Positions 1,533 to 12,558 of a stretch of DNA of 12,558 nucleotides are shown in pieces. Under the pieces are notes generated by a model. It was not told the origin of the DNA. It did not search any database and saw only the letters and a list, made by a program, of their open reading frames with translations. Position 1 is the stretch's first letter; every line of letters starts with the position of its first letter. The position numbers and the translations under genes are program-made. Origin of the DNA: Acidobacteriota bacterium (GTDB lineage: Bacteria > Acidobacteriota > Thermoanaerobaculia > Multivoradales > UBA5704). The DNA lies in the NCBI GenBank assembly GCA_040005235.1, contig JBDTZG010000107.1, positions 1 to 12,558 of the forward strand, given 5' to 3'.

Positions 1533-3311
1533 TCAGGCGCCGGGCTCGTTGGGCTTCGGCGTTTCGTCCTCTGCCGCCTCGGCGTCCGCGGCGTCTACCG
1601 AAGGCGGGATGATCGGCGACCCTGGGATCGGATCGATCGGCGGAATCGGCGGGACTGGAGCCATTGGAGCCATCGGCGCCATTGGAGCCATCGGATAGGC
1701 CTCGTAGGGGGGAATCTCGCTCGCCGCTCCTCGCGGCCGGCGCGGCCCCATGCCGAACCGGGTGAGGATCACCGCGCCGAATCCGAACGTCCAGGCGGCG
1801 TAGGTCAACAACAAGCCGGTGATCGAAAAGAACCAGCCGAACACGTCGAGCGGCCCAGCCCCAAGAGAGAGCAGACGCCCCATGATGCGACAGACCTCGA
1901 TCGAGAACAGGCCGACCAGGGCGGTCGCCACCGCGCTGCCGAAGTGCCGGTCGAACCGATGCTCGATCAACCGACCGATCCGCAGCGCAAAGCCGGAAAA
2001 GCCGATCAAGCCGCCGATGATCAGCGCCAGGGCCAGGAACGGATAGAGGATCAAGAGCGGTATGCCGATGATCGAAACCACCAGGATCGCGGTCACCACC
2101 ACGAACAGGGGAATGAACAGCAGTTGGGCCAGAAAGCCCGCGAGGCCCGCCTGCCAAAATTCGCTCGTCAGCTTCGCCTCGATCCGCGCCACGGGATCGC
2201 GGGCGACGGCCACGGTGACCGCGACCAGAAGGCCGAGCAGGGCGAGCGTAAGGATCGACCACATCAAGCGCATAGCTCCGGCGAACGGACTCCACCAAGG
2301 CCAGAAATCGAAATCGTGATCGCCGCCGATCTGGATTCCCGGGCCGGCCGCCTGATTGATCCGACCATGAATCTTGGCGCCCGGCTCCCGTTCGACCGTA
2401 CCGCCGACGCTCGTGACGTCCCCGTCGACTTCCGCCTTGGGTCCGAGGTGTACGTCGCCACCGACCGAAAGCACATTGCGACCGACGTGGCCGTTCACCT
2501 TCACGTCGCCGCCCATCGATATCACGTCCCGCCGCACCGAACCGTCGATGGTCGCCGGGCCGCCGATCACGACGACGATTTCGGCCTCTTCGTCGGAATC
2601 GACGTGGGCGCTGCCGGAAAAGCGCAAGACTTTGCCGATCCGCACCCGATTGGCGTCGGAGTCGTCGCCGCCGTTTTGCACCTCGGGCAATTCAGGAGCG
2701 GCCGGCGCCTCGGGGGGTACCGGCACCGCCGGCAACTCGGTGACCGCTTCGTCGGTCGACTCCGCTGCAGCGGCCGCATCGGCGCCGCCCTCCTTAACGG
2801 CGTCGGCACTCGGCGATGTTGCAGAGGGTGCAGAGGGCGCAGAGGGTGCAGAGGGCGCAGGGGCCGCTTCACGAGGCGATCCGCCGGACGACGAGAACCC
2901 GAAGAGCGCGCGGCGTTCGGCAACCGGCAGCGCCAGCAGCCGAAGCAGCGGTGCCGCATCCGCCCCCAGCCAGGCGTTGAGCACGCTGTCGCTCACCCGC
3001 TCGCCATTGACCGCGATCGATGAGCCGCTCACCTCGATCGAACGGACACCCGATCGTTCGACCCGCGGACGCAGCATCACGCCTTCGCGCAGAGGCAGGA
3101 TTTCGTAGCGGTTTTCCAACTCTTGCCGCAGGGGGCCGGCCGCCGGACCGGCGCTCGACCGGCTCGAACCTCCGGCTTGCGCCGCCGCCGGGATCGCGCC
3201 GAGGTGAAAGGACAACGCAGCCATCGCCATGATCGCGGCCATCGCCGCCAAAACCCAACGAACCGATCGCCGGGCGGAACGCTTCAAGATCCATCGTTTA
3301 GAGATCCACAT
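1533..3311 (-). CDS. Secreted-domain/polytopic membrane protein: signal peptide, N-terminal domain, Pro/Ala linker, bactofilin-like (polymer-forming cytoskeletal) beta-helix repeats, about 5-6 C-terminal TM helices and a Pro-rich tail (592 aa)
   Basis: ATG at 3311 is preceded by SD GAGGAG at 8 nt, a better start than 3329. Signal-like hydrophobic stretch ending AAAQA. Beta-helix-type repeats VVIGGPATIDGSVRRDVISMGGDVKVNGHVGRNVLSVGGDVHLGPKAEVDGDVTSVGGTV. Hydrophobic helices include ILVVSIIGIPLLIL. Start overlaps the stop of the upstream gene. Confidence 0.75.
   Translation of the reverse strand: MWISKRWILKRSARRSVRWVLAAMAAIMAMAALSFHLGAIPAAAQAGGSSRSSAGPAAGPLRQELENRYEILPLREGVMLRPRVERSGVRSIEVSGSSIAVNGERVSDSVLNAWLGADAAPLLRLLALPVAERRALFGFSSSGGSPREAAPAPSAPSAPSAPSATSPSADAVKEGGADAAAAAESTDEAVTELPAVPVPPEAPAAPELPEVQNGGDDSDANRVRIGKVLRFSGSAHVDSDEEAEIVVVIGGPATIDGSVRRDVISMGGDVKVNGHVGRNVLSVGGDVHLGPKAEVDGDVTSVGGTVEREPGAKIHGRINQAAGPGIQIGGDHDFDFWPWWSPFAGAMRLMWSILTLALLGLLVAVTVAVARDPVARIEAKLTSEFWQAGLAGFLAQLLFIPLFVVVTAILVVSIIGIPLLILYPFLALALIIGGLIGFSGFALRIGRLIEHRFDRHFGSAVATALVGLFSIEVCRIMGRLLSLGAGPLDVFGWFFSITGLLLTYAAWTFGFGAVILTRFGMGPRRPRGAASEIPPYEAYPMAPMAPMAPMAPVPPIPPIDPIPGSPIIPPSVDAADAEAAEDETPKPNEPGA
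1657..1694. repeat. In-frame 9-bp tandem repeat, 4 copies (GG[A/C]GCCAT[T/C]), encoding (PMA)n in the C-terminal tail
   Basis: ggagccatt-ggagccatc-ggcgccatt-ggagccatc read directly. Confidence 0.85.
2821..2865. repeat. In-frame 9-bp tandem repeat, about 5 copies (GCAGAGGG[T/C]), encoding an (APS)n linker
   Basis: gcagagggt-gcagagggc-gcagagggt-gcagagggc-gcaggggcc read directly. Confidence 0.85.
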
Positions 3312-3825
3312 AGGACCAACTCCTCTCACGTCGAATCAGGGTCTGGAGGAGGGTGAGGGCACCGCCCGCCACGGCAACCAGAATGGCCAGACTCAAGACG
3401 ACCGTCGGTTGTCCGAACGGCGCCGCCAGCGTCCGGCGCATCGCACCGAGGGCGTCGGCCCAGCTGGCGAGAACCACCAGAGCGTCGCCGAGCCGGCGTA
3501 CCAGATCCGCGGCGAGCCCGACACTTCCCGAAGCCGAGGGGCGCGGCGCGAGCCACCAGACGAGCGGCACCAACCAGAGCGCGGCGCAACCGGACAGAGT
3601 CACGCCGCCGAGCACCAGGGCCCGCGCCCAACGCCGGGAGAAGGCCCCTTGCGGTCGGGCTTCGGCACGGACGTCGGTCATCACCCGGGCGGCAAAGCCC
3701 GGCGAGGGCGAACGGTCGGGAAGCTCTGCCGCCAACGCCGCAAGCGCCGATTCGGCGGCCTCGTCATCGAGGTCCTCTTCGGCGGCAAGCCAGCGGGTCA
3801 GGAGCTCAGGGGTCGAACGGTTCAT
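3298..3825 (-). CDS. Putative membrane-bound anti-sigma-factor-like protein (175 aa)
   Basis: Directly downstream of the ECF sigma. ATG 3825 has SD GGAGG at 5 nt (alternative GTG 3837). Short helical cytoplasmic N-domain ends in PSPGFAARVM, resembling the P-x-F-x-x-R-V-M segment common in anti-sigma domains, followed by 2-3 hydrophobic segments. No HxxxCxxC zinc motif. Confidence 0.6.
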   Translation of the reverse strand: MNRSTPELLTRWLAAEEDLDDEAAESALAALAAELPDRSPSPGFAARVMTDVRAEARPQGAFSRRWARALVLGGVTLSGCAALWLVPLVWWLAPRPSASGSVGLAADLVRRLGDALVVLASWADALGAMRRTLAAPFGQPTVVLSLAILVAVAGGALTLLQTLIRRERSWSYVDL

Positions 3826-7574: not shown

Positions 7575-8183
7575 CTACCTCTTCGCGAACTTTTCGCGCG
7601 CGCGGGCGATGTCGGCCTCGATCGCCTTGGCCTGTTCGAGGATCTGATCGGCCTTCTGCTTGGCCGCCGCGTAATCGCCGCCGGCAAACGCAGTGTCCGC
7701 ATCGCCGAGCGCCGTCTGGAGCCCATCAAGGTCGCCCTTCATCGCTTCCAAATCGGCGCGGCTGTCTTTGCCGACCGGCGCGGTCGCAAGCGAAGTCCTG
7801 GCGGTTTCAATCGCCAGCCGCGCCTGATCGAGCGCGGTCTGCGCCTGTCCCTTGAACTGCTCCTTGCCGGAGACCGCCTGAAGCTTCGCCGTATCGGCAT
7901 CGGTGCGCGCCTGAGCGAGCAGGGCGCGAGCCTTGCCGTAGCTGCGTAGCGGAGCGAACCGGCCATCCTGCGCCGCAACCTCGGCCTTCGCCTGATCGAA
8001 AGTCTGCTGCGCCTTGGTGAACGACTCGGGCGCGTACGCGTCGGCGCCCGAGCTCTTCGCTTCGCCGAGGCTGTTCTGGGCGATTTGCAGATCGCCGGTC
8101 GGCGGTTTGGCGCACCCCAGCCCAAGAACCAAGGCGAGGGGAAGCAAAGTCGCACAGCGCAACGAGGATCGAAACGGGTTCAT
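7575..8183 (-). CDS. Alanine-rich helical lipoprotein, DUF4398-like
   Basis: Lipobox LGLG-C. CAKPP...AKSSGADAYAPESF..A pattern recalls DUF4398. All-helical Ala/Gln/Lys composition. SD GGAGG 6 nt upstream. Confidence 0.7.
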   Translation of the reverse strand: MNPFRSSLRCATLLPLALVLGLGCAKPPTGDLQIAQNSLGEAKSSGADAYAPESFTKAQQTFDQAKAEVAAQDGRFAPLRSYGKARALLAQARTDADTAKLQAVSGKEQFKGQAQTALDQARLAIETARTSLATAPVGKDSRADLEAMKGDLDGLQTALGDADTAFAGGDYAAAKQKADQILEQAKAIEADIARAREKFAKR

Positions 8184-8238
8184 CGGATACCTCCGCTTGA
8201 GGTTGGATACGGCGTGACGTTTCCATCGCCGCCGACGG

Positions 8239-8247
8239 AGCTTATCA
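8239..8247 (-). promoter_or_regulatory. Possible extended -10 promoter (TGaTAAGCT) for the lipoprotein-gmk-rpoZ-coaBC-udg unit
   Basis: TGn followed by TAAGCT, downstream of the terminator and about 55 nt before ATG 8183. No recognisable -35. Confidence 0.35.
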
Positions 8248-8293
8248 GCAGCCCGCCGAGCCTGCGCTGCGGGAGGCGATCCATCTCGCCATC

Positions 8294-8328
8294 AAAAGCC
8301 GACGGCCCGGCGTTGCCGCCGAGCCGTC
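8294..8328 (-). terminator. Intrinsic terminator of the TPR-tonB-exbB-exbD-exbD operon
   Basis: 12-bp stem GACGGCUCGGCG/CGCCGGGCCGUC with one G-U pair (pairs only on the minus strand), GCAA GNRA tetraloop, followed by ggcUUUU. Confidence 0.7.
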
Positions 8329-8402
8329 TTTCCAGTCCGGGTTGACCTTCCAGGTCCAGGAGGTCTGCCGGAATCCAACCTGCGAGAAAAGGAGCGGCGG
8401 CC
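8294..8402 (-). ncRNA. Candidate 3'-UTR-derived regulatory RNA antisense to the tonB-exbB junction
   Basis: Contains CUCCUUUUCUCG (8394-8383, complement of 10026-10015 including the exbB SD) and CUGGACCUGGAAG (8359-8347, complement of 10088-10076). Ends in the terminator. Existence as a separate RNA is inferred. Confidence 0.4.
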
Positions 8403-8849
8403 TTAGGTGGCGCCGACCGCCTGTGCCGCGGCGCCGGGACCGTCGAGATCGTCGAACACGATCCCCAGGTTCTCGGCTCCTGCGTCGCGGCACATGTCCA
8501 TGAAGTCCGCGACTTTGCCGTATTCGAGATCGCCGTCCGCCGCGAAGAAGATCACCTTCGACGAACGGCCGGTCAACGCTTCCTTGAGCTTGCCCGGAAA
8601 CTCAGCCAACGGCACCGACACCTTGTTGATGTAGGTGGTGCCCTTGTCGTCCATCCGGACGATCAGCTGATCGGAGGATGGCGGCGGCTGCGCCGACTCC
8701 ACTTTCGGCGGCACCTGCACCGGGTAGCCCATCTGGATCAGCGGCGTGATCACCATGAAGATGATCAGCAGCACCAGGACTACATCGACCAGCGGGGTGA
8801 TGTTGATGTCGCTCCGGGGTCCACTACCGGAGGAGGGGCCCATAGCCAT
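8403..8849 (-). CDS. exbD: ExbD/TolR family biopolymer transport protein (second copy)
   Basis: DINITPLVDVVLVLLIIFMVITP TM motif with the conserved Asp. C-terminal ADGDLEYGKVADFMD...AG. Confidence 0.9.
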   Translation of the reverse strand: MAMGPSSGSGPRSDINITPLVDVVLVLLIIFMVITPLIQMGYPVQVPPKVESAQPPPSSDQLIVRMDDKGTTYINKVSVPLAEFPGKLKEALTGRSSKVIFFAADGDLEYGKVADFMDMCRDAGAENLGIVFDDLDGPGAAAQAVGAT

Positions 8850-8895
8850 CGCAAGTACCTCGTCTCTTCGGGTCCGGTGAGGGACCGCGATTCTT

Positions 8896-9333
8896 TTAGG
8901 CGCCCGCGAGCGCCTTGCGTTCGGTGATCAATCCAACGCGGGTGAACCCGGCCTCGTTGATCGTCTGCATGAGCTTCCGCACGTCCTTGTACTTCAACCG
9001 CCGATCCGCCTTGACCACCACTTCGCGATCGTTGTTGCGGCCGTAGATGTCCGCGAACATGTTCACGAGCTGGGCCTCTGGAATCCACTTCTCCTGAATG
9101 AAGACGGTGCCGTCGAGCTTGAGAGCAACGTTCAGCTGCTTCTCGTTCTCGGGCATCTTCGCGGGAGAGGCGGTCTCCGGCAACTGGACGTCGACACCTT
9201 TCTGGAGCAGCGGCGTGACCACCATGAAGATGATCAACAGCACCAGGCAGACATCGACCAGCGGGGTGACGTTGATGTCACCTCGGACGCCAACGTCGCC
9301 GATCGGATGCTGTCGGCTAGCGAACTTGTGCAT
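8896..9333 (-). CDS. exbD: ExbD/TolR family biopolymer transport protein (first copy)
   Basis: DINVTPLVDVCLVLLIIFMVVTP, VDVQLP, VVVKADRRLKYKDV...AGFTRVGLIT. 17-nt overlap with exbB, SD GAGG. Confidence 0.92.
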   Translation of the reverse strand: MHKFASRQHPIGDVGVRGDINVTPLVDVCLVLLIIFMVVTPLLQKGVDVQLPETASPAKMPENEKQLNVALKLDGTVFIQEKWIPEAQLVNMFADIYGRNNDREVVVKADRRLKYKDVRKLMQTINEAGFTRVGLITERKALAGA

Positions 9334-10006
9334 TTCGAGTCCTCTGTCGCTTCATGAAAAAGTCGACCAGCTCCGAGGAGGAGTTCGACATCTCAACTTG
9401 CAGGCGCTCGATGCGGCCGGTGAAGTAGTTGAACATCCAGGCGGCGGGAATCGCGACGAACAGGCCGAACGCAGTGGTGACCAGCGCTTCGGAGATACCT
9501 GCGGAAACCGCGCCGATGCCGCCCGAACCGGTGGCGGCCATGCCCTGGAACGCGTTGATGATGCCGATAACGGTGCCGAACAGGCCGATGAATGGCGCGG
9601 TCGTCGCGATCGTCGCAAGAGTGCCGATGCCGCGCTTGAAATCGGCCGTGGTGAGCAGGGCCGAGCGGTCGACGGCGCGGGCGGCGGCTTCGACGACTTC
9701 CGGGTCGGAGAGCGGACTGGTTTCGCTTTCGAATTGGTACGACTGAAGGCCGGCGGAGACGACTCGCGCGAGGTGGCTCTGCGGGAACTTCGACGCCGCG
9801 TCGATTGCCGCCTGGGCGCGATCATGCTTCATGTGATCGGTCGCGAGGCGCGCGAAGGCCAGAGACTGTTTGCGGGCCTTGTTGTAGAGGAGCAGGCGCT
9901 CGACCGAGATGTACAGCGACCAGATCGACATTATGAGCAGGATGACGGCGACGGCCCGGGCGATGAAGCCCATCGATTGCCAAAGACCAGCGGGGGAAAG
10001 ATCCAT
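9317..10006 (-). CDS. exbB: MotA/TolQ/ExbB proton channel family protein
   Basis: LATIATTAPFIGLFGTVIGIINAF and GISEALVTTAFGLFVAIPA signatures. SD AAGGAG 8 nt upstream. Confidence 0.93.
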   Translation of the reverse strand: MDLSPAGLWQSMGFIARAVAVILLIMSIWSLYISVERLLLYNKARKQSLAFARLATDHMKHDRAQAAIDAASKFPQSHLARVVSAGLQSYQFESETSPLSDPEVVEAAARAVDRSALLTTADFKRGIGTLATIATTAPFIGLFGTVIGIINAFQGMAATGSGGIGAVSAGISEALVTTAFGLFVAIPAAWMFNYFTGRIERLQVEMSNSSSELVDFFMKRQRTRNAQVR

Positions 10007-10072
10007 TCTTTGTTCTCCTTTTCTCGGATTCGACTTTAGTCTTGACTCGAGTCTTGATTGCTGGACCTGGTT

Positions 10073-10828
10073 TTACTGGACCTGGAAGTTGACCGTCAGT
10101 ACGTAGTAGACCTTCACCGGGCGACCCTGGAACATCGCCGGCCGGAATTTCCATTTCTCGACCGCGTCGACCGCGGCCCGGTCGAGCCCCATCGGCAGAC
10201 CCTTGAGCACCCGCACGTTGGTGACGTTGCCCCGCTCGTCGATGATCGCTTCGACGATCACCGTGCCTTGGAGGCGGGCGCGGCGCGCGATCTCGGTATA
10301 GACCGGGTTCACCTTGGTGACGAACTCGGGTCGCGAGACGCCGCCGCCGACCCGCAGCGGAGCGTCGTCGACCACCGGCGCGACGCCGGTGCCGCCCAAA
10401 ACTCCGCCTGGAACGCCGCCCTCGACTCCCCCGGCGACACCGCCGGGAATGCCGCCTTCCACGCCGCCTTCCACGCCGGGCGCGGACGTCGGCTCTTCGG
10501 TCGGCGGCGGGATTTCCTCCGGCACAGTTACCGGCTGCACCGGTTCGGTCGGCGTCACCACCTGCTCGACTTTCGTCACCACCGGCTTCGGCGCGCTCGG
10601 CGGCGGAGGAGGTGGCGGAGGAGGAGGAGGAGGTGGCGGAGGCGCGGACGCCGAGAGGAACACCACGTTGATCGGCGGCTCGGGCACCGGATCGATGTTC
10701 CAATAGTGGGCGAACAGATACCCCCCCGCCGCGACGAGGTGGAGGCCGACCGCTATCGGTACGAACAAATATCGGTACTTACTGAAGATTCTCGTCTTGT
10801 CCAGATCGATGAGCGAGGCTTCGAACAT
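10073..10828 (-). CDS. tonB: Energy transducer TonB family protein
   Basis: N-terminal TM with conserved His (AVGLH), 15-proline run, GGVxGG repeats, TonB_C domain (PVYTEIARRARLQGTVIVEAIIDERGNV...GLDRAAVDAVEKWKFRPA..G.PV). Confidence 0.92.
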   Translation of the reverse strand: MFEASLIDLDKTRIFSKYRYLFVPIAVGLHLVAAGGYLFAHYWNIDPVPEPPINVVFLSASAPPPPPPPPPPPPPPPSAPKPVVTKVEQVVTPTEPVQPVTVPEEIPPPTEEPTSAPGVEGGVEGGIPGGVAGGVEGGVPGGVLGGTGVAPVVDDAPLRVGGGVSRPEFVTKVNPVYTEIARRARLQGTVIVEAIIDERGNVTNVRVLKGLPMGLDRAAVDAVEKWKFRPAMFQGRPVKVYYVLTVNFQVQ

Positions 10829-10832
10829 CGGC

Positions 10833-11660
10833 TTACCCTTCCGCCGGACTCTTCGGCTCGTTGGCGGCTGCTTTTTTGCGCAGCTCGATCGCCTTCTGCA
10901 TCCACTCGGTCGCCTTGTCCAGGAAAACCTGGCGCGCAGCCGGATCGGTGGTCATCTTGGCCTTCTCGCGGTAGAGAAGGTTGTAGTACGCCATCGCCTC
11001 GAAGTAGTCCGGCTTGAGCTTGAGCGCCTTATCCGTCGCGGCGATCCCCAAATCGACGATTCGCTCGCGATCTTCCAGGCTGTACTTCGGGTCGTTGTAC
11101 GACTTGTCCCACGCCGACACGCCTAGGGTATACAGGATCTCCGGTGCGTCGGGTCCTTCAAACGCCATCCCAAACTTCACCGCCTCGTCGTAGCGATCCG
11201 CCTGGTTCAGGATGTTGATTTTCGAGCGCATCGCTTCGCCAGCCTTGGTCGGATCCGTCTGCGCTTCCTGATCGACGAAGGCGAGCGCCTTGTCGTACTG
11301 CTTCCCGTTGATGTACATCGAGAGCAGGTAGTCCTTCATCTTCTGGTCGGCGGCGTTTTCCGGATCGGCCAGATACTTTTCGAAAGCTTCGGTCGCCACG
11401 CGCCCCAGCTCTTGGTTCGCCGGGCTTTCGTCGCCCGGCTTGAAGATCGCGAGCGCCGAAAGACCGACCGAGCGCCAGGCGAACGTGGCATCCGGATCGT
11501 TCTCCAGGCCCTTCTGAAACTCGGCGAGGGCCTGCTTGTACTCCTCGTTCGCGTAGTACTCGTTGCCCTGCTTCATCTCGATCCGGGCCCTGACCTTATT
11601 GCAGCCGATGGCCGGGAGCATCAAGAGAGTCACTGCGATGGCGATCGAACACTTGTGCAT
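10833..11660 (-). CDS. TPR-repeat lipoprotein, first gene of the Ton-type motor operon
   Basis: Lipoprotein signal ending PAIG-C. TPR-like helices (GNEYYANEEYKQALAEFQKGLENDP; ALKLKPDYFEAMAYYNLLYREKA). 4-nt gap to tonB. Confidence 0.8.
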   Translation of the reverse strand: MHKCSIAIAVTLLMLPAIGCNKVRARIEMKQGNEYYANEEYKQALAEFQKGLENDPDATFAWRSVGLSALAIFKPGDESPANQELGRVATEAFEKYLADPENAADQKMKDYLLSMYINGKQYDKALAFVDQEAQTDPTKAGEAMRSKINILNQADRYDEAVKFGMAFEGPDAPEILYTLGVSAWDKSYNDPKYSLEDRERIVDLGIAATDKALKLKPDYFEAMAYYNLLYREKAKMTTDPAARQVFLDKATEWMQKAIELRKKAAANEPKSPAEG

Positions 11661-11802
11661 GAGAGCCGCTTCCCCGACGTGTTAGAAGGGTGAGACTGCC
11701 GTTTGGTTCCCGAGCTTCTGGACAGGTGGAAAGAACAACCATTCCGACGAACGCTCCATCAGCCTGATTTCGCGCATTTTCCACCCCGAGCTCAGGGCGG
11801 GA

Positions 11803-11830
11803 AGTCTACTCGGCCCCCCGTTCCTGTCAA
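11803..11830 (-). promoter_or_regulatory. Sigma70-type promoter TTGACA-N16-TAGACT for the TPR-tonB-exbBDD operon
   Basis: Perfect -35 TTGACA (11830-11825), 16-nt spacer, -10 TAGACT (11808-11803). Predicts a leader of about 135 nt. Confidence 0.75.
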
Positions 11831-12109
11831 GCCCGTCGCGGACCGCTCGAATCTGCCCTACGGGCCATAGATTCCAATGCTTTATCGAAGCCATGAGGCT
11901 TTGGGGGGACAGGCTTCCCTCGCCCGGGATGAACGGCGGCCACAGCGGGTCGAAGGCCGCGCTCGACGGCAGCGTCTCGACCGGTCTACGCGTGGAGCGC
12001 AGACCGCGACCGCGGGGTTCTGTGACGAATCGCCTCAAATTTGGCTCCGAGTCGGGGGATGGTATGCGAAACCCCCGAACAAGGCCAAGCGATTTGCAAC
12101 TTCGACGCC

Positions 12110-12128
12110 AAATCCGCCCCCGGGCGGA
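12110..12128 (-). terminator. Possible weak terminator downstream of pal
   Basis: UCCGCC-cggg-GGCGGA hairpin followed by only UUU. Confidence 0.3.
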
Positions 12129-12210
12129 AGACCCCGGCGGCCCATCCGCCCGGAGTTCGGGCAGCAAGATCTACCGGGAAGACGCGTAACGCTTGCCGCG
12201 TGGCCGCGGC

Positions 12211-12558
12211 TCAGCGCCGGCTGGAGAGCACGAAGTGCGCGCGCCGGTTCTCGTGCCAGCAAGACTCTTCGCTCTCAGAGCAGAACGGCCGCTCTTCACC
12301 GTAGCTGATCGTGCGGATCCGGTCGGCGGCGACCGCGAGCGACCCAAGATACTGCTTGACCGAGTTGGCGCGCCGGTCGCCGAGGGCGAGGTTGTACTCG
12401 TTCGTGCCGCGTTCGTCGCAGTGCCCTTCGATCGTCACCTGAAATTCCCGATGATCTTGGAAGAACTTGGCATTGGCGGCCAGCCGGTCGCGGGTGGCGG
12501 AGCTCAGCTCGGCCTGGTCGTAGTCGAAATAGACGTCGCCGAGCAGGCCCTGGGCGCG
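12211..12558 (-). CDS. pal: Peptidoglycan-associated lipoprotein (OmpA C-like domain), 5'-truncated by the window edge
   Basis: Frame open to the window end: RAQGLLGDVYFDYDQAEL...TIEGHCDERGTNEYNLALGDRRA...ISYGEERP...NRRA. Confidence 0.93.
   Translation of the reverse strand, partial: RAQGLLGDVYFDYDQAELSSATRDRLAANAKFFQDHREFQVTIEGHCDERGTNEYNLALGDRRANSVKQYLGSLAVAADRIRTISYGEERPFCSESEESCWHENRRAHFVLSSRR

Follow-up and report, generated by a model that had tools for sequence, protein, structure and literature searches.

The window analyzed here is a 12,558-nt stretch of an Acidobacteriota genome (contig JBDTZG010000107.1). Its minus strand carries a five-gene Ton motor operon, TPR-tonB-exbB-exbD-exbD, as seen from the list of open reading frames (ORFs) and a Pfam scan of the window. 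A 219-nt spacer with a strong intrinsic terminator lies 3' of the last stop codon of the operon, and the 3' untranslated region (UTR) of the operon, spanning 8402 to about 8291, is the subject of this study. The UTR contains sequence blocks complementary to the tonB-exbB junction of the same operon, one of which matches the region covering the Shine-Dalgarno (SD) sequence of exbB. The complementarity, its excess over chance, and its upkeep through paired changes in relatives are observed; from these observations we infer pairing in the cell, repression of exbB, and release of the UTR as a small RNA (sRNA).

Complementary blocks at the ends of the exbB-exbD-exbD segment

Read on the minus (mRNA) strand, the junction and the UTR share three block pairs of 12, 5, and 13 nt, which are exact reverse complements and follow each other in nested antiparallel order (Table 1), as the first-pass annotation of this DNA had described them. 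The sequence CCAGGTCCAG is found twice in tandem at 10061–10085, with a TAAAA spacer across the tonB stop codon, and hence the respective UTR block could pair in two registers. The same duplication is present in one other species of the set (G003) and is not seen in G007, G002, and G004.

The minimum-free-energy fold of the UTR alone consists of the terminator and a small hairpin, GACCUCC-uggaccu-GGAAGGUC, that holds the 13-mer, with the CU-rich block left mostly unpaired. This agrees with the earlier description of the 13-mer as lying partly in a hairpin loop and of the CU-rich block as a seed-like element near the 5' end of the UTR. The terminator predicted to follow the blocks was also found, its tail holding only four U. 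The junction RNA is unstructured (z = +0.6).

Table 1. Features of the Ton motor operon, its 3'UTR, and flanking genes (window coordinates)
Feature	Positions	Strand	Remarks
Junction block 1, CTTCCAGGTCCAG, last tonB codons	10076–10088	-	complement of UTR 8347–8359
Second direct copy of CCAGGTCCAG, just 3' of tonB stop	10061–10070	-	alternative 10-nt pairing register for UTR block
Junction block 2, GAATC (10031–10027) and CGAGAAAAGGAG (10026–10015)	10015–10031	-	covers exbB SD AAGGAG, 8 nt before ATG 10006
UTR anti-SD block CTCCTTTTCTCG, proposed seed	8383–8394	-	exact complement of 10015–10026; 8 nt past exbD2 stop
UTR GATTC	8371–8375	-	complement of GAATC 10027–10031, after 7-nt bulge
UTR block CTGGACCTGGAAG	8347–8359	-	complement of tonB end; in loop and 3' arm of small hairpin
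Intrinsic terminator	8291–8328	-	12-pair stem 8328–8301, then GGCTTTTGA; tail reads GGCTTTTGAT
TPR-repeat protein gene, upstream member of operon	10833–11660	-	Pfam TPR_11/TPR_14
tonB-like gene, TonB_C domain	10073–10828	-	PF03544, 78.8 bits; stop codon 10075–10073
exbB, MotA/TolQ/ExbB proton channel	9317–10006	-	PF01618, 111.8 bits; ATG at 10006
exbD, first copy	8896–9333	-	PF02472, 92.4 bits
exbD, second copy (exbD2), last gene before UTR	8403–8849	-	PF02472, 90.3 bits; stop 8405–8403
DUF4398 gene, downstream of spacer	7575–8183		
OmpA-family gene, upstream of operon	12211–12558		

The 12-mer occurs in two copies in the 6.22-Mb genome (66% G+C), both at this locus, while the 13-mer has four genomic copies, two of them here and two inside unrelated coding sequence. 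Dinucleotide shuffling of the UTR (2000 shuffles) gave exact complements to the junction of at most 11 nt, compared with the observed 13 and 12 nt. The cofold binding energy of the 106-nt junction and the 113-nt UTR is -21.3 kcal/mol; when only the 74 nt of the UTR preceding the terminator were shuffled, the mean was -6.8 kcal/mol (standard deviation 2.9) and none of 300 shuffles reached the observed value, so that the earlier judgment that a chance match is unlikely holds under shuffled controls.

A trivial explanation, namely that a CU-rich UTR stretch happens to match an A/G-rich SD leader, has some appeal in that any stretch containing CTCC complements an SD sequence, and 14 of 5000 shuffles reached the observed value of a less strict measure, the summed length of colinear blocks of at least 5 nt. 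Against it stand the uniqueness of the 12-mer to this locus and the two shuffling controls, as well as the comparative data given below.

RNAduplex was applied to whole junctions and 120-nt UTRs. The window had a z-score of -3.3 and five other species of its genus had scores from -1.7 to -4.6, with -0.09 in G005; in most other genera z was near 0. Since this long comparison is noisy in GC-rich DNA, it was replaced by shorter windows, in which 20 of 52 loci were at p < 0.05, and by counts of exact matches.

Complementarity and paired changes in relatives

A DNA search with the operon matched all 61 genomes searched (the window's own, G000, and 60 relatives), and an exbB orthologue was found in 90 of 92 genomes of the respective Thermoanaerobaculia family, which comprise 11 genera; the window's own genus is denoted g1. 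Operon loci were collected by genome search, metagenome scan, species-genome scan, and direct fetching, and for each locus the tonB-exbB junction and 100–170 nt after the second exbD were extracted. Both parts were available for 85 species loci. Five loci were left out, four because of a contig or fetch end or the lack of a usable protein match, and one (L163) because the exbB start could not be placed.

An exact complement of at least 9 nt between the exbB start region (-25 to +8) and the first 100 nt of the UTR was found in 18 of the 85 species, with a shuffle p of at most 0.01 in 15 of 85. These include four of seven species in g1, both species in g3, ten of 35 in g5, one of four in g2, and one of seven in g6. 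In many more g5 loci the block is present but contains a single mismatch or a bulge. The control start regions compared with the same UTRs at the same threshold gave no match for exbD1 (0/85), one for exbD2 (1/85), and none for tonB (0/25). Given these controls, and given that the match recurs in relatives with different sequences, the chance explanation is already disfavored and can hardly be believed.

The paired sequences vary by lineage, the complementarity being kept. The pair is CGAGAAAAGGAG/CTCCTTTTCTCG in the window's genus and GGAGAAGCGC/GCGCTTCTCC in most of g5, where it is often extended over the start codon (ATCCA vs TGGAT); some g5 species and subclades have GGAGACGCGC/GCGCGTCTCC(TT), with 12 nt exact in G091. 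Both g3 species have GGAGAAGAGC/GCTCTTCTCC(T), and one g2 species has CTGGGCTGGAA/TTCCAGCCCAG.

Because a MAFFT alignment of the span from exbB to the terminator misaligned several UTR blocks, an alignment-free Hamming test and a local-alignment score were used. In the former, the nearest reverse complement of each UTR was sought among three start-region 10-mers. At no more than one mismatch, 16 UTRs of type A, two of type C, and two of type G3 all match their own start region, with three ties and no discordant cases; at no more than two mismatches a few UTRs are discordant or tied, most of them from genera that lack the element. The regular expressions defining UTR classes were written by hand after the data had been seen and are descriptive only.

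On the tree of exbB-exbD-exbD coding DNA, an A-to-C change in the start region occurred in four places within g5, and a matching T-to-G change in the UTR was found in three of the four, including the sister pair G081/G084, which differs at exactly that pair of positions. A test of independent pairs based on the local-alignment score had four pairs available, and in two to three of them the UTR changed in the same way, in none in the opposite way. Since the independent pairs are too few, the case for paired evolution rests on specificity, recurrence with different sequences, and a few clean events.

The largest genus, g5, shows the most regular arrangement. Its exbB start region reads ...AAAAGGAGAAGCGC-ATGGAT, and its UTR contains (A)TCCA-GCGCTTCTCC at 4–8 nt before a conserved terminator, CCCCCTCG...CGAGGGGG followed by a T-run. 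The UTR block complements the SD sequence and the spacer; beyond a bulge of one base, it also complements the start codon and the codon after it. The seed begins between about 8 and 47 nt past the stop codon. When 37 UTRs were aligned (36 from g5/g6 and two from g3, minus L133, where another gene directly follows), the consensus was G.TCCAGCGCTTCTCC....CCCCCTCG...CGAGGGGG..TGTTTT, and in the RNAalifold structure the terminator is folded and the seed stays single-stranded.

A covariance model, R1, was built from this alignment and searched against the family, matches of at least 40 bits being considered strong. Strong matches were found in 37 of 41 g5 genomes (one each, two in G091) and one in a g6 genome. 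Of 39 strong matches, 37 lie 870–1025 nt downstream of exbB on the same strand; the two unplaced ones are on a different contig in G082 and in G098, which has no exbB match at the threshold. The g5 element is single-copy, and weak R1 matches elsewhere look like similar terminators. Such weak matches (27–36 bits) are numerous in some genomes, with 18 in G074, eight in G028, and seven in G082, and suggest that an element with the CCCCCTCG/CGAGGGGG stem, terminator-like or REP-like, is repeated there.

The g5 element resembles the window UTR in its position after the second exbD, in its target, the exbB start region, and in its logic. The pairing registers are different, extending upstream of and including the SD sequence in the window and from the SD sequence to the start codon in g5, and the terminator stems differ too. 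The two may be diverged homologues or have arisen by convergence.

Additional complements of 8–9 nt were noticed in three loci and are non-nested or single cases. In L022 (G028) and L177 (G085), AAGACGTA directly 5' of the anti-SD block complements TACGTCTT in the tonB-exbB spacer, in an order incompatible with a simple nested duplex; the third locus is L144.

The block matching the tonB end is distributed more narrowly. It is present with at least 10 nt in five of the seven species of the window's genus and is nearly confined to it; outside g1, matches of 9–10 nt to the tonB end or the junction were found in G010 (g4), G033 (g2), G097 (g5), and G054 (f9). Of the conserved or covarying complementarity that the first-pass annotation named as a check, the part concerning the anti-SD block stands, being seen in several genera with paired changes. 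Most genera of the family have no complement of this kind.

Within this narrow range the tonB-end block also varies on both sides. Species G002 (junction CTTCCAAGTC, UTR GACTTGGAAG) has changes in both partners with all pairs Watson-Crick, including a compensated G-to-A/C-to-T replacement (junction ttccaAgtc, UTR gacTtggaag). One G-U pair is formed in the metagenomic locus L031 (junction CTTCCAGGT, UTR ACTTGGAAG) and in G001 (junction CTTCCAGGTCCAG, UTR CTGGACCTGGAGG), and one U-G pair in G004 (junction GGTTCAG, UTR TGGACCTGGAAG), while G010 from genus g4 (junction GGTGCAG, UTR CTGCATCTGG) combines a double change with one G-U pair. The junction changes are synonymous third-position changes in tonB. 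Intermediates compatible with G-U pairing would be predicted by pairing on the mRNA strand, three events being too few for a proof.

The same observations bear on the explanations acting at the level of DNA, that is, that the inverted repeats are scars of an inverted duplication, ends of an invertible segment, or sites for one DNA-binding protein. The repeats do flank exbB-exbD-exbD, and the G004 UTR contains a tandem TGGACCTG-a-TGGACCTGGAAG that recalls the tandem CCAGGTCCAG of the window junction. Several facts make these explanations very improbable. A Pfam scan of 18 window ORFs matched no recombinase or transposase family. Two public DNA runs contain the window sequence and may be its source; in run X1 the DNA contigs keep a colinear order and show no joint with a change of strand between the repeats, contigs being prone to drop rare variants. 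Paired changes recur even though gene conversion would need longer repeats than these 10–13 bp; tonB would be joined to antisense exbD2 by an inversion; and the exbB SD sequence forms one arm in every case, which is explained by RNA pairing and not by a DNA site. The invertible exbB-exbD-exbD segment that had been offered earlier as an alternative found no support in these ORFs and contigs.

Other origins of the UTR block were considered and rejected. A plus-strand ORF at 8407–8634 (GTG start, AAGGAG 12 nt upstream) has no Pfam match, and the corresponding reading of the block as a ribosome-binding site on the opposite strand fails in g5, where the plus strand reads GGAGAAGCGC-TGG without a start codon. 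A plus-strand remnant of tonB in the UTR (LTFQVQ vs LTVNFQVQ) amounts to only about 17 nt of similarity with no extended homology.

A putative feedback element and its alternatives

Since relatives keep the match via paired changes, its role is probably that of a feedback brake, acting at the RNA level, on the genes of the proton channel. We consider an autoregulatory 3'UTR element that represses translation of exbB, similar to OppZ of Vibrio cholerae, somewhat more probable than an even chance, its most likely form being a terminator-bearing sRNA. The OppZ-like feedback limiting ExbB and ExbD had been put forward in the first-pass annotation; it is consistent with the anti-SD complementarity kept in relatives and with the genome encoding Hfq (61.9 bits), Rho, and two RNase E/G-family proteins (open frames of 519 and 963 aa), while the tonB-end block included in that proposal is mostly limited to one genus.

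The putative mechanism would be as follows. The CU-rich UTR block would pair with the SD region of exbB and hinder binding of the 30S subunit; in the window's genus, the second UTR block would additionally pair with the last tonB codons, and this extra arm would be opened by ribosomes finishing tonB. With its ribosome-binding site hidden, less ExbB would be made, and the two ExbD proteins would also fall, by coupling or by premature termination, TonB and the TPR protein being spared. The element is transcribed last and would thus report completed operon transcripts; made only after the whole operon has been transcribed, it would exert negative feedback on the proton-channel part. As in OppZ, the terminator-bearing small RNA would be cleaved off the mRNA's 3' end. 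An unpaired seed lying 5' of an intrinsic terminator is a layout typical of 3'UTR sRNAs, and the compact seed-plus-terminator module of g5 favors a released sRNA.

No sigma-70-like promoter was found within 8150–10250, and hence the UTR would come from the operon transcript. This, together with the pairing and covariation evidence, applies equally to action in cis only, in which the 3'UTR of the full-length mRNA folds back over about 1.7 kb onto the tonB-exbB junction and blocks exbB initiation, perhaps also creating a site for a double-strand-specific RNase, and no sRNA is released. In the window's genus the two blocks, being nested, would act as a clamp of the sort expected from a single continuous antiparallel interaction, and a precedent is provided by the icaR mRNA (PMC3868564). 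We nevertheless regard this variant as unlikely, as the g5 seed adjoins the terminator in a compact conserved sRNA-like module, ribosomes translating 1.7 kb of coding sequence would hinder a stable fold, and long-distance intramolecular pairing was tested and excluded in the case of OppZ, according to the part of that report consulted here (PMC7398697).

It is also conceivable that the pairing is not repressive. The Ton complex of E. coli needs more ExbB than TonB, yet tonB is located upstream in this operon, and pairing might raise ExbB and ExbD relative to TonB, either by forming a closed loop that recycles ribosomes from the exbD2 stop codon to exbB or by protecting or defining a processed exbB-exbD-exbD mRNA. 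The tonB-end block flanks the junction, and the window seed is so close to the exbD2 stop codon that a terminating ribosome would open the helix. On the other hand, the paired region covers the SD sequence and in g5 also the start codon, which is the classical repressive arrangement, and the variable stop-to-seed distance in g5 argues against a mechanism linked to the stop codon. Such a role seems improbable.

A broader explanation is that an RNA feedback loop in the Ton motor operon is maintained across the whole family, the 3'UTR titrating the exbB start site either as an sRNA or by folding back and its two sites co-evolving, and that in the window's genus a second arm has been gained that clamps the tonB end and, opened by ribosomes finishing tonB, couples ExbB and ExbD synthesis to translation of TonB. 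This we hold as a tentative possibility, somewhat short of an even chance.

A number of observations weigh against an autoregulatory element. The exact complement of at least 9 nt is absent in 67 of the 85 species, including all those of g7 (0/10), g8 (0/4), g10 (0/9), g4 (0/2), g9 (0/1), and g11 (0/1), and of families f4 (0/2) and f9 (0/1). Even within the window's genus, the tonB-end block is missing in G007 and G005, the latter having also an anti-SD block that is no more than weak. Many SD sequences would be paired weakly by any CU-rich block resembling an anti-SD. Among the paired changes, the start-region change of the g5 species G034 has no counterpart in its UTR, changes on one side alone are mixed in g5 with no clear bias to G-U pairs, and the sign test on independent pairs has a median p of 0.25, significance being unreachable with four pairs. 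Model R1 has no matches in G000 and none at g1 operons, its only g1 match being a weak one (32 bits) on another contig in G005; hence the window UTR appears to be a functional analogue at the same position and not a demonstrable homologue of the g5 element, and common descent of the two is unproven by this model. Finally, three soil metatranscriptome runs from one study (X3, X4, X8) yielded contigs of a relative that are 90–95% alike to the window and cover exbB and both exbD genes; they include coding regions only, none extending over 8200–8397, and such contigs give neither ends nor levels of RNA.

The X3, X4, and X8 contigs end 17–22 nt past the exbD2 stop codon (window 8404) of a close relative, inside its CTCCTTT stretch, with the loose letters AAAGGAGCGGCTGGCGC on the plus strand; contig ends are not RNA ends, and this is a hint at most.

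Neighborhood and known 3'UTR elements

The gene order at 7575–12558 is OmpA-family, an unknown 161-aa ORF, TPR, TonB_C, ExbB, ExbD, ExbD, and DUF4398, a neighborhood no less similar to a Tol-Pal-like envelope system in rearranged form than to a classical TonB system. The region 3' of exbD2 varies among relatives. In genus g8 the next gene comes straight after exbD2, with no terminator between them (L012), and in L133 (G069) and L130 (G030) a third exbD-like gene, reading ...atcaacatcacgccgctggtggacgtg, replaces the UTR position after the second exbD.

The two exbD paralogues of the window share a 109-nt direct repeat with 82% identity (8709–8817 and 9178–9286). One low-depth X1 DNA contig (depth 2.6) joins 8776 to 9257 with 11 other letters between; it reflects either recombination or deletion, or it is chimeric through assembly. 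Farther away, the minus-strand ORF at 1533–3329 (598 aa) contains tandem 9-nt repeats at 2804–2855, GCAGAGGGT-like, in at least three overlapping copies; its sole Pfam match is a sub-threshold one to Bactofilin (18.7 bits vs a cut-off of 27.9). An Rfam 15 scan of the whole window gave no family match, the only hits being two sub-threshold chance matches elsewhere in the window, to MIR815 and sR3.

The closest parallel among described elements is OppZ, reported with CarZ (Hoyos et al., 2020; PMC7398697) and cut by RNase E from the 3' end of oppABCDF; with Hfq, it binds to the start region of oppB and sets off termination by Rho (PMC7398697; PMC9438474, as far as these sources were seen). In the part of a 2022 review consulted, OppZ and CarZ are called the first autoregulatory 3'UTR-derived sRNAs (PMC9438474). 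The window element is likewise located at the 3' end of a polycistronic operon beside an intrinsic terminator, the same layout being found in g5. Its 5' part complements the initiation region of an internal gene (oppB there, exbB here, the pairing being predicted in our case), the genes upstream of the target (oppA there, tonB and TPR here) would be spared, and the genes for Hfq, RNase E-family proteins, and Rho are present. The differences are that the two elements have no sequence relation and come from different phyla, the present one from class Thermoanaerobaculia of Acidobacteriota; that the window's genus has a second pairing block inside the preceding coding sequence, absent from OppZ; and that the evidence here is comparative, consisting of paired changes, whereas that for OppZ is experimental.

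A second parallel is the icaR mRNA of Staphylococcus aureus, in which, according to the portion of the report consulted, a UCCCC motif in the 3'UTR pairs with the SD sequence of the same mRNA (Ruiz de los Mozos et al., 2013; PMC3868564). In both cases a C/U-rich anti-SD motif in the 3'UTR complements an SD sequence of the same transcript and the expected effect is a block of initiation. However, the icaR mRNA has a single cistron and is targeted in its own 5'UTR, whereas the element described here would act on an internal cistron located 1.7 kb upstream within a five-gene operon, and the g5 motif, being part of a compact seed-plus-terminator module, is more sRNA-like. AbnZ was considered as a further relative and set aside, its target being TamAB in the part of the source seen (PMC11724286).

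Among the papers listed by full-text literature searches, no 3'UTR element or sRNA from a tonB/exbB/exbD operon was found, while supplementary tables of sRNA screens (e.g., the TIER-seq lists of PMC7398697) could list one; the consulted part of the 2022 review of 3'-end-derived sRNAs does not mention tonB, exbB, exbD, or tolR (PMC9438474). The window element would join the known autoregulatory 3'UTR elements and is of note for the clade that hosts it, for what it targets, and for the compensatory variants found in nature.

If the broader explanation is correct, the element would be the first of the OppZ autoregulatory type from outside Proteobacteria and the first for a Ton/Tol motor, backed by natural compensatory evolution. 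It would also give a testable answer to the question of how the ratio of the ExbB/ExbD channel to TonB is set from one transcript, the natural compensatory variants being ready-made for reporter assays. The same logic in uncultured soil Acidobacteriota, recognized from sequence alone and from paired changes across genera, suggests that the design is widespread and discoverable by comparative genomics.

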